Shown here: piece by piece, positions 3,162 through 4,450 of the stretch
How the letters are laid out: every line of letters starts with the position of its first letter
Numbering within the stretch: position 1 is the stretch's first letter
From: Candidatus Jordarchaeales archaeon
Lineage (GTDB): Archaea; Asgardarchaeota; Jordiarchaeia; Jordiarchaeales; Freyrarchaeaceae
Length of the DNA stretch: 32,000 nucleotides
Reading direction: 5' to 3'
Assembly: GCA_038889235.1 (NCBI GenBank)
Contig: JAWAHN010000002.1
Span: 314,356 to 346,355 of the forward strand
Translations under genes and position numbers: made by a program
The notes under the pieces: generated by a model
What the model was told of the DNA's origin: nothing
Database searches by the model: none
The model's input: only the letters and a program-made list of their open reading frames with translations

Positions 3162-4450
3162 TCATGCAAACTTGCGCGGGTCTGTTATCTCTCCTGTGAC
3201 GGCCGAGGCGGCTACAGTTGCCGGCGACGCTAAGTATATCTTCGCATCCTTGCTCCCCATTCTGCCAACAAAGTTCCTGTTAGACGATGATATGCACACT
3301 TCACCGGGAGCCAGGAGGCCTAGATGCGCCCCTATGCACGGCCCACAGGTTGGGTTGCAGACCACGCAGCCTGCTTCGAGGAATATCTCTATCAGTCCCT
3401 CCTTCATAGCTTTCAAGTATACTTCCTTCGATGCCGGTATCACTATCGCTCTGACCATATCTGCAACCTTTCTTCCTTTGAGTATCTTCGCAGCAATCCT
3501 GAGGTCTTCGAGCCTTCCATTGGTGCATGAGCCTATGAACGCCTGGTCTATTTTTACACCCTCAACTTCCGAGACCGGGACGGAGTTTTCCGGGCTTGGA
3601 GGTTTAGCCACCTGCGGCTCAAGGTTAGTGACATCCACATCTATGACTTCCTCATATTCAGCGTCGGGGTCGTTGTAGACTGGTTTAAACGGCTGTCTGG
3701 CTCTCTCTTTGATCCATTGCAGGGTTTTTTCATCCGGCTCTATTATGCCCGTTTTCCCGCCCGCCTCTATCGCCATGTTACAGAGGGTGAAGCGAGCATC
3801 CATGCTGAGCTCCCTAATAGTGTTACCTGCAAACTCCATAGCTTTGTAGCTTGCCCCCTCAACACCTATCTCGCCTATTATGTGAAGGATTATGTCTTTA
3901 CCCATAACCATTGGTTGAAGCTTTCCCTCCACGTTAAACTTGACCGTTGAGGGAACCTTAAACCAGATTTCTCCTGTCGCCAGCACAATGGCCATGTCCG
4001 TTGCACCCATCCCAGTAGCAAAGGCGCCCAGCGCTCCGTAAGTCGTCGTATGCGAGTCACTCCCGACGACAAGATCCCCAGGCTTAACAAATCCCTTCTC
4101 AGGAAGGACGACGTGGCATATACCCTCGCGCATGTCAAGCCAGTTCTTGATCCCGTACTTTTTCACAAACCTCCTACACGTAGCGTGTACAACAGCTGCA
4201 TCGATGCTCGGCGCAGGGGTCCAGTGGTCTATAAGTGCAACCACCTTTTCAGGGTCCCAAATCCTATCTAGGCCCAGCTCCTCATATATGTCCGCTATCC
4301 GCAGTTCGGCGCAGCCCGCTAGTGGGCGGCGCTTCCGAGCATCTCGTGGACCATCACGAGGTCAACCTTTGCGTTAACAATTTCACCCGGCTCAACTCGC
4401 TCCTTGCCCGAATGGGATGCAAGTATCTTCTCCGAAATAGTCATCCCCAT
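3162..4450 (-). CDS. leuC: 3-isopropylmalate dehydratase / homoaconitase large subunit (LeuC/HacA family), split by a 29-nt putative intron; exons 4450-4333 and 4303-3162, 419 aa after splicing
   Basis: ATG at 4450 (GGAGG RBS) encodes [40 protein letters not shown] different frame continues [26 protein letters not shown]...GICH...DSHTTTYG...GSCTNGR...CGPCIG...NRNFVGRMG. Removing 4304-4332 joins them into 1260 nt (420 codons including the stop). Confidence 0.92.
4304..4332 (-). other. Putative 29-nt bulge-helix-bulge (BHB) mRNA intron, GCGCCGCCCACUAGCGGGCUGCGCCGAAC
   Basis: The pre-mRNA folds as exon helix UGC/GCG, central helix UCGG/CCGA (4 of 4 Watson-Crick), 3-nt bulges AAG and ACU on opposite strands, and intron stem CGC-C-GCCC/GGGC-U-GCG with a 6-nt loop. 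Cutting after the second nucleotide of each bulge restores the frame. Confidence 0.85.

Follow-up and report, generated by a model that had tools for sequence, protein, structure and literature searches.

Within the 32,000-nt stretch of Jordarchaeales DNA analyzed here (the window), a hacA/leuC-family large-subunit gene on the minus strand is interrupted at 4304..4332 by a 29-nt insert, and ORF calling gives two ORFs for this one gene, one of 43 codons (4450..4319) and one of 360 codons (4244..3162). The question is whether the gene is broken or is mended in its RNA, and whether other genes of this genome share its condition. A sequence-only reading of the window had taken the insert for a BHB micro-intron and had predicted a wider set of such introns in the genome.

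Observed in these sequences are BHB motifs at the breaks, exact restoration of frame and alignment by excision, same-site conservation with compensatory change, and genes for the splicing enzymes. They make it highly likely that the 29-nt element is a BHB intron of the hacA/leuC pre-mRNA, spliced by EndA and RtcB, and that the same mechanism acts at at least 17 further introns in 16 genes. Exon and intron bases of the pre-mRNA would fold into helix, 3-nt bulge, 4-bp helix, 3-nt bulge and helix; a two-subunit EndA would cut each bulge between bases 2 and 3, and RtcB would ligate the exons. Ligation would form an AUG codon over the junction and give a 419-codon frame.

The interrupted hacA/leuC gene and its orthologs

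The gene and its motif have the following parts (window coordinates).

4333..4450, minus strand: exon 1 of hacA/leuC; begins with ATG at 4450 and comprises 39 codons and base 1 of the junction Met codon; NCBIfam profile positions 1-39
4304..4332, minus strand: predicted BHB intron, 29 nt; excision yields GGA/AUG/CGG = G-M-R, the same as in the intron-less homologs L117, L118 and L033
3162..4303, minus strand: exon 2 of hacA/leuC; begins with bases 2 and 3 of the junction Met codon, and its stop codon occupies 3162-3164; TIGR01343 / NF001614
4339..4341, minus strand: outer exon-exon helix h, 5' strand; 3 bp with 4300-4302, invariant
4335..4338, minus strand: exon strand of the central helix H (4 bp with 4306-4309); all four pairs are kept in each of the 10 distinct orthologs
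4332..4334, minus strand: 5' bulge, A A / G; predicted cut after 4333; AA/N kept in all orthologs
4310..4331, minus strand: inner helix h'; 4331-4324 with 4317-4310, 7 bp plus one C.U mismatch; 6-nt loop 4323-4318
4306..4309, minus strand: central helix H, intron strand; partner of 4335-4338
4303..4305, minus strand: 3' bulge, A C / U; predicted cut after 4304
4300..4302, minus strand: outer helix h, 3' strand; partner of 4339-4341

Against NCBIfam TIGR01343 and NF001614 (E about 2e-180), the first piece covers profile positions 1-39 and the second, from its residue 6, positions 44-415, and therefore removal of the insert leaves no indel. Splicing out 4332..4304 joins GGA A to UG CGG, which creates the junction Met within one uninterrupted frame. 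The claim that a 29-nt insert at 4304-4332 splits hacA/leuC is confirmed by this zero-indel fit. The exon 1 piece has 80-92% protein identity across the order.

A second, uninterrupted copy of hacA/leuC lies at G000:C2:144705-145817 (G000 being this genome), so the split copy alone need not be essential. The intron-less homologs closest to the split copy (L033, L117 and L118) include a bacterial MAG record (Candidatus Deferrimicrobium), and the best match among other Asgard families has only 57% identity. The presence of a bacterial-labelled record among the closest homologs may reflect transfer between domains.

The hacA BHB was drawn by hand, with the cut placed between bulge bases 2 and 3 as in the archaeal cleavage rule for each 3-nt bulge (PMC2738675). 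It has the make-up of an archaeal BHB, with a fully paired central helix (4/4), bulges of 3 nt, and inner and outer helices of 7 and 3 bp. Six exon nucleotides take part, as had been claimed, four in the helix (4338-4335) and two in the bulge (4334-4333), and the intron side contributes the partner strand 4309-4306 and the bulge bases 4305-4304. Strict BHB motifs occur in this genome at about 7e-5 per position and length (70,046 candidates), and the presence of one at the sole frame-restoring place of hacA is not chance. The single-sequence MFE fold of the site does not show the BHB (z = -1.2, not significant alone), and thus the structural case for hacA rests on comparison. The outer-helix pairs never vary and therefore carry no covariation information.

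Same-site inserts, which the sequence-only reading had proposed to look for in leuC/hacA orthologs of related MAGs, are present in every intron-bearing ortholog found, namely in nine Jordarchaeales genomes from two families and in three metagenome contigs. The insert measures 29 nt in four of the genomes, 33 nt in four and 30 nt in one, with identical exon ends throughout, and the three contigs contribute one further distinct variant. The 30- and 33-nt introns belong to the sister family, are in frame and carry stop codons. Among 40 relatives, orthologs from the same genus, family and sister family have frames that end just upstream of the query, and more distant homologs are contiguous and full length; the hacA intron is distributed order-wide. 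Intron-less homologs at 63-64% identity, the closest ones, have ..HEMLG-M-R.. at this place, which is the product of the canonical cut, junction Met included.

All 10 distinct ortholog sequences retain 4/4 central pairs, and their inner helix is kept through changes on both sides when the sequences are anchored at the splice sites. One central-helix pair in G004 has changed on both sides from C-G to U-A, the exon half of the change being synonymous, and the inner helices of the two families have entirely different sequences with the same pairing. Pairs were counted with this anchoring, as a MAFFT alignment across both families misaligned the inner helix; 97% of cells are paired, compared with 26-46% when the partners are slid. 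Unguided RNAalifold prediction from the five 29-nt sequences gives the central helix, a 3-nt bulge and the inner helix. For the sister family it prefers another outer pairing, although each member of that family can be drawn with the canonical motif. Among orthologs, the structure of the hacA intron is conserved and its sequence is not.

Further introns in the genome

Two scans of the whole genome used G011 as reference, a closed, intron-less 1.42-Mb genome of a relative from another family. The homology-first scan began with a tblastn of the G011 ORFs on this genome, added sensitive local searches, and selected adjacent same-strand alignment pieces with 14-59 surplus bases. It gave 12 genes, each with a canonical or relaxed BHB at the break whose cut restores the frame and a gap-free alignment. 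The BHB-first scan translated 104,445 relaxed candidates across the putative junction and accepted those with an alignment score of at least 40 on both sides against the reference and no gap near the junction; 14 loci were accepted, compared with 2 in a control with the 3' cut shifted by one base. When the alignment thresholds were loosened, real and shifted-cut counts converged (47 vs 36; 97 vs 92), and only the strict set was counted. Filters on ORF geometry, with or without a codon-usage model, passed thousands of BHB candidates, of which exactly one third were frame-restoring; this is the null expectation, and such filters were therefore not used as evidence.

The predicted wider set of BHB introns materialized as a total of 18 introns in 17 genes whose canonical excision repairs the gene; beyond hacA, these are at least 17 introns in 16 protein genes. 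Positions below are the last base of exon 1 (contig:position), followed by strand and intron length.

hypD, C1:259819, plus strand, 17 nt
aEF-2, C1:445964, minus strand, 29 nt
NuoD/[NiFe]-large-subunit-like, C1:549890, minus strand, 59 nt
gatE, C1:615265, plus strand, 31 nt
ppsA, C1:711448, plus strand, 18 nt
pimt, C1:804346, minus strand, 31 nt
aIF5B, C1:806572, plus strand, 29 nt
cbf5, C1:835886, plus strand, 29 nt
rpl44e, C1:836937, plus strand, 29 nt
aIF2-gamma intron 1, C1:849983, minus strand, 33 nt
aIF2-gamma intron 2, C1:849934, minus strand, 29 nt
radical-SAM activase-like, C1:964012, plus strand, 28 nt
dnaG, C1:972113, minus strand, 34 nt
small GTPase, C1:996246, plus strand, 30 nt
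TIGR00375 family, C2:133881, plus strand, 29 nt
leuD/hacB, C2:145889, plus strand, 29 nt
hacA (window 4333), C2:318688, minus strand, 29 nt
FAD oxidase, C3:304888, plus strand, 27 nt

Intron lengths range from 17 to 59 nt, and 29 nt is the commonest (8 of 18). Four of four central pairs are formed in 14 introns and three of four in the other four; many have a weak outer helix or none. The first bulge base is A almost everywhere, a feature biased by the BHB-first scan, which demanded it, and seen in 11/12 5' bulges and 12/12 3' bulges of the 12 introns found free of the motif filter. All three codon phases are represented. NCBIfam and Pfam profiles run on from one exon to the next, as in ppsA, where NCBIfam positions 3-131 are followed by 132-796. 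The label of frameshifted pseudogenes given to such genes beforehand suits the frame-breaking introns and is too narrow for those that are in frame and break the gene by a stop codon, as in ppsA, the small GTPase, aIF2-gamma intron 1 and the 30- and 33-nt hacA introns of the sister family. Single-copy genes with introns include aEF-2, aIF2-gamma, aIF5B, gatE, dnaG, rpl44e and cbf5.

At G000:C1:849905-849982 (minus strand; L153:1206-1283), the aIF2-gamma gene has a 33-nt and a 29-nt intron flanking a 16-nt micro-exon, which encodes the P-loop residues VDHGK. Both introns have 4/4 central pairs. Because of this micro-exon, the gene was missed by both scans, and its introns were resolved by hand. 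In aIF5B (L144:109-137) and aIF2-gamma (L153:1206-1234), which are paralogous translational GTPases, 29-nt introns lie one base apart at the end of the P-loop ..DHGK/T, and in both the exon bases ..UGGCAA give the helix strand and the bulge. These near-identical sites hint at a target-site preference.

The set is a lower bound, as short exons, in-frame introns free of stop codons and genes lacking a reference homolog are largely invisible to the scans. Ten strong BHB-first candidates had no homolog in the reference. Pfam confirmed one, a FAD_binding_4 domain split 1-80 / 93-139, and was ambiguous for two (HTH/HTH and Fer4/Fer4); at least four of the ten were rejected, the cdhC/cdhD, TYW2/GTPase and X/rubrerythrin candidates being neighboring genes by Pfam, not split genes. 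The ferredoxin-like locus C1:645412 (L50) was left out of the count. Within the window, all BHB candidates other than hacA were rejected, among them 26364 (acyl-CoA dehydrogenase adjoining ETF), 17794 (an ATP-grasp gene adjoining HAD) and 16746 (inside an uninterrupted 332-codon glycosyltransferase frame). The hairpin at C1:999589 is followed by a T run and looks like a terminator, and the RadA gene is not interrupted.

Six more genes are split relative to the reference with no convincing BHB at C1:884100 (plus strand, 1 surplus base), C2:361430 (plus, 16), C2:395000 (plus, 14), C2:461120 (minus, 14), C3:260890 (minus, 1) and C3:428600 (minus, 73); very relaxed introns, genuine frameshifts or artefacts of the alignment may account for them. 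Also left out was C1:894600-897300, where matches to reference ORFs resemble the spurious frames typical of a 23S rRNA gene. The pieces of this putative 23S region differ from the reference by 1, 8, 17 and 19 bases, which may represent rRNA insertions or introns.

Splicing enzymes, alternatives and age of the introns

Of the two PF01974 EndA paralogs encoded by the genome (G000:C1:1056 kb and C3:444 kb), one is 196 aa long and carries all three catalytic residues, Tyr, His and Lys, in their expected motifs; the other is 195 aa long and is missing the His. The subunit architecture of EndA, a check suggested together with the intron prediction, therefore shows the pattern of the two-subunit type, and the paralogs would presumably assemble as such. 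According to PMC5829648, cleavage of non-canonical motifs is limited to EndA of the two-subunit and epsilon types. A full-length, uninterrupted RtcB gene is also present, so that the host encodes both the EndA pair and the ligase that relaxed motifs call for. From motifs and enzyme genes together we infer that cleavage and ligation take place in the cell. Among Asgard archaea, it is this lineage that is most heavily loaded with tRNA introns (PMC11291895; bioRxiv 10.64898/2026.10.13.758758). ARAGORN found only 14 tRNA genes in the whole of G000, 10 of them with introns, mostly at non-canonical positions; tRNAs this few and this intron-rich fit the hidden-intron problem described for these families.

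Gene decay or errors of assembly or sequencing would make the affected genes pseudogenes and their hairpins incidental. ORF lists do give truncated or split genes, the assembly is of metagenome type (8 contigs, 95% complete, 3.3% contaminated), and a few other split genes lack a clear BHB. However, independent assemblies show an insert at the same hacA site, together with compensatory changes and exons that are conserved, single-copy essential genes are among those affected, and inserts always lie where the canonical cut restores the alignment (the 14 loci against 2 with the shifted cut), which leaves this account very little credence. Self-splicing introns of group I or group II are known to have a ribozyme core of hundreds of bases, and inserts of only 17-59 nt do not qualify. 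The RNA could also stay intact and the gap be skipped in translation, by programmed frameshifting or by ribosome hopping of the kind known from phage T4 gene 60. A GGA codon precedes the hacA insert, and some orthologs have GGA near its 3' end, from which translation would resume as G-L-R. Yet a GGA codon to land on is missing from 3 of the 10 distinct orthologs, the bases vary in a way that keeps pairing with the exon helix and not identity, and intron-less homologs read G-M-R, the spliced product, instead of G-L-R. The in-frame 30- and 33-nt versions carry stop codons that no +1 or -1 shift would solve. No slippery site and no matched take-off and landing codons are conserved among the hacA orthologs, and what the 18 sites have in common is BHB geometry, not slippery sequence, so that a translational skip is hardly credible.

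Splicing could be real in part, with EndA cutting mainly as a control or decay switch, most transcripts remaining unspliced or being destroyed, and the hacA paralog doing the work. The paralog is indeed uninterrupted, and processing of one 5' UTR by Haloferax EndA affects expression (PMC7714728). Against this, both exons of the split hacA are under protein-level conservation across two families, and single-copy aEF-2, aIF2-gamma and gatE obtain their protein only via productive ligation; we regard a mere switch as improbable. Productive splicing of these intron-bearing mRNAs is very probably required.

The age of the introns appears to differ between genes. Three genomes of the genus (G000, G001 and G003) carry the insert in aEF-2, which is single-copy in G000, with substitutions; it is precisely missing from G004, which belongs to the family's other genus, and from the sister family (L155-L157 vs L158, L159, L163). 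The gene is a clean presence/absence pair for dating gain or loss. A TAA flagged once inside aEF-2 of G026 and of G036 marks the natural end of the gene. For gatE, ppsA, pimt and hypD, frames in G001, G003, G004, G006 and G009, compared by length only, mostly end within a few codons of the exon-2 query, which fits order-wide introns in these genes. Poor fits to this pattern are hypD of G001, with a frame long enough to be uninterrupted, and gatE of G004, with a shortened match.

The cbf5 intron (L145:248-276) interrupts the codon of the catalytic Asp after its first letter, at the place reported for Crenarchaeota (PMC2738675). As in G000, a BHB-flanked insert of 26-41 nt occupies the same place in G004, G005, G006, G021, G028, G031, G033 and G038, so that same-place inserts span five Asgard families among the relatives searched (also L183, L185, L190-L194 and L196). 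Open frames of cbf5 in the rest of the Jordarchaeales genomes end at the same point, and the gene is uninterrupted in G016, G020 and G026. Either the shared site is ancient, older than the TACK-Asgard split, or it is a hot spot of strongly site-specific insertion.

As for the source of the introns, the sequence-only reading had suggested reverse ligation of excised tRNA or rRNA introns, and this idea finds no support. When introns with their flanks were compared by blastn-short with the whole genome, all tRNA and rRNA introns included, and with each other, no resemblance was seen; matches comprised 12-15 bases, rarely 16-17 with one mismatch, at E >= 0.1. Nothing in these comparisons supports recent copying from tRNA or rRNA introns, and an old event would be compatible with the data.

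Consequences and comparison with known systems

ORF-only gene finding splits such genes, as had been anticipated, and across the order hacA, leuD, ppsA, hypD, the NuoD/hydrogenase-like large subunit, gatE and several translation factors would be called truncated, split or pseudogenes. Pathway reconstructions of these Asgard archaea consequently under-call genes. As at least 17 genes including indispensable ones are affected, EndA and RtcB would be part of ordinary gene expression. It seems reasonably likely, going further, that Jordarchaeales cannot express core genes unless the tRNA-splicing machinery splices many of their mRNAs, with gain and loss ongoing (aEF-2), a cbf5 intron that is ancient or site-specific, and micro-exon split genes existing in archaeal relatives of eukaryotes independently of the spliceosome. 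The lineage is among the closest prokaryotic relatives of eukaryotes and offers datable gains and losses, a micro-exon and one position in common with Crenarchaeota, which makes the origin of split protein genes testable there.

A BHB intron in crenarchaeal cbf5 pre-mRNA was reportedly described by Watanabe in 2002. That system was treated by Yokobori in 2009 (PMC2738675), and cbf5 of Crenarchaeota is named as the only coding-sequence BHB case in both PMC2738675 (2009) and PMC7714728 (2020). Like the Jordarchaeales introns, the crenarchaeal cbf5 intron is short, lies in coding sequence, has a canonical or relaxed BHB cut between bulge bases 2 and 3, and is associated with a hetero-oligomeric endonuclease and with lineage-wise gain and loss. 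In contrast to that one gene, splicing of coding sequence by the tRNA endonuclease would here concern at least 17 genes of one genome, in an Asgard host, with 29 nt as the commonest length and one gene with two introns and a 16-nt micro-exon. In the literature searched, crenarchaeal cbf5 is the only case, and no protein-coding BHB introns are reported for Asgard archaea.

The non-canonical tRNA introns of Freyr-, Jord- and Atabeyarchaeia (PMC11291895; bioRxiv 10.64898/2026.10.13.758758) share the motif, the enzymes and the intron-rich lineages, and neither source mentions mRNA introns. Unlike in tRNA introns, the host RNA here is a messenger, and codons therefore have to spell out half of the motif. 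The BHB intron in the 5' UTR of Haloferax volcanii HVO_1309 (PMC7714728) likewise involves EndA acting on an mRNA, but it lies in an untranslated leader, whereas the hacA intron lies within the reading frame. Both are BHB introns.

Eukaryotic HAC1/XBP1 mRNA splicing depends on the nuclease IRE1 and is regulated by stress, and to our knowledge this type of splicing has one target gene per genome. It resembles the Jordarchaeales case in being non-spliceosomal, with a protein endonuclease and an RtcB-type ligase removing a frame-changing intron of a few tens of bases flanked by stem-loops, and differs in the use of IRE1 in place of EndA/TSEN, in stress regulation and in its single target. The mechanism, BHB and EndA, is known; the interest lies in the scale, the host lineage, the essential genes, the micro-exon and an intron position shared with Crenarchaeota.
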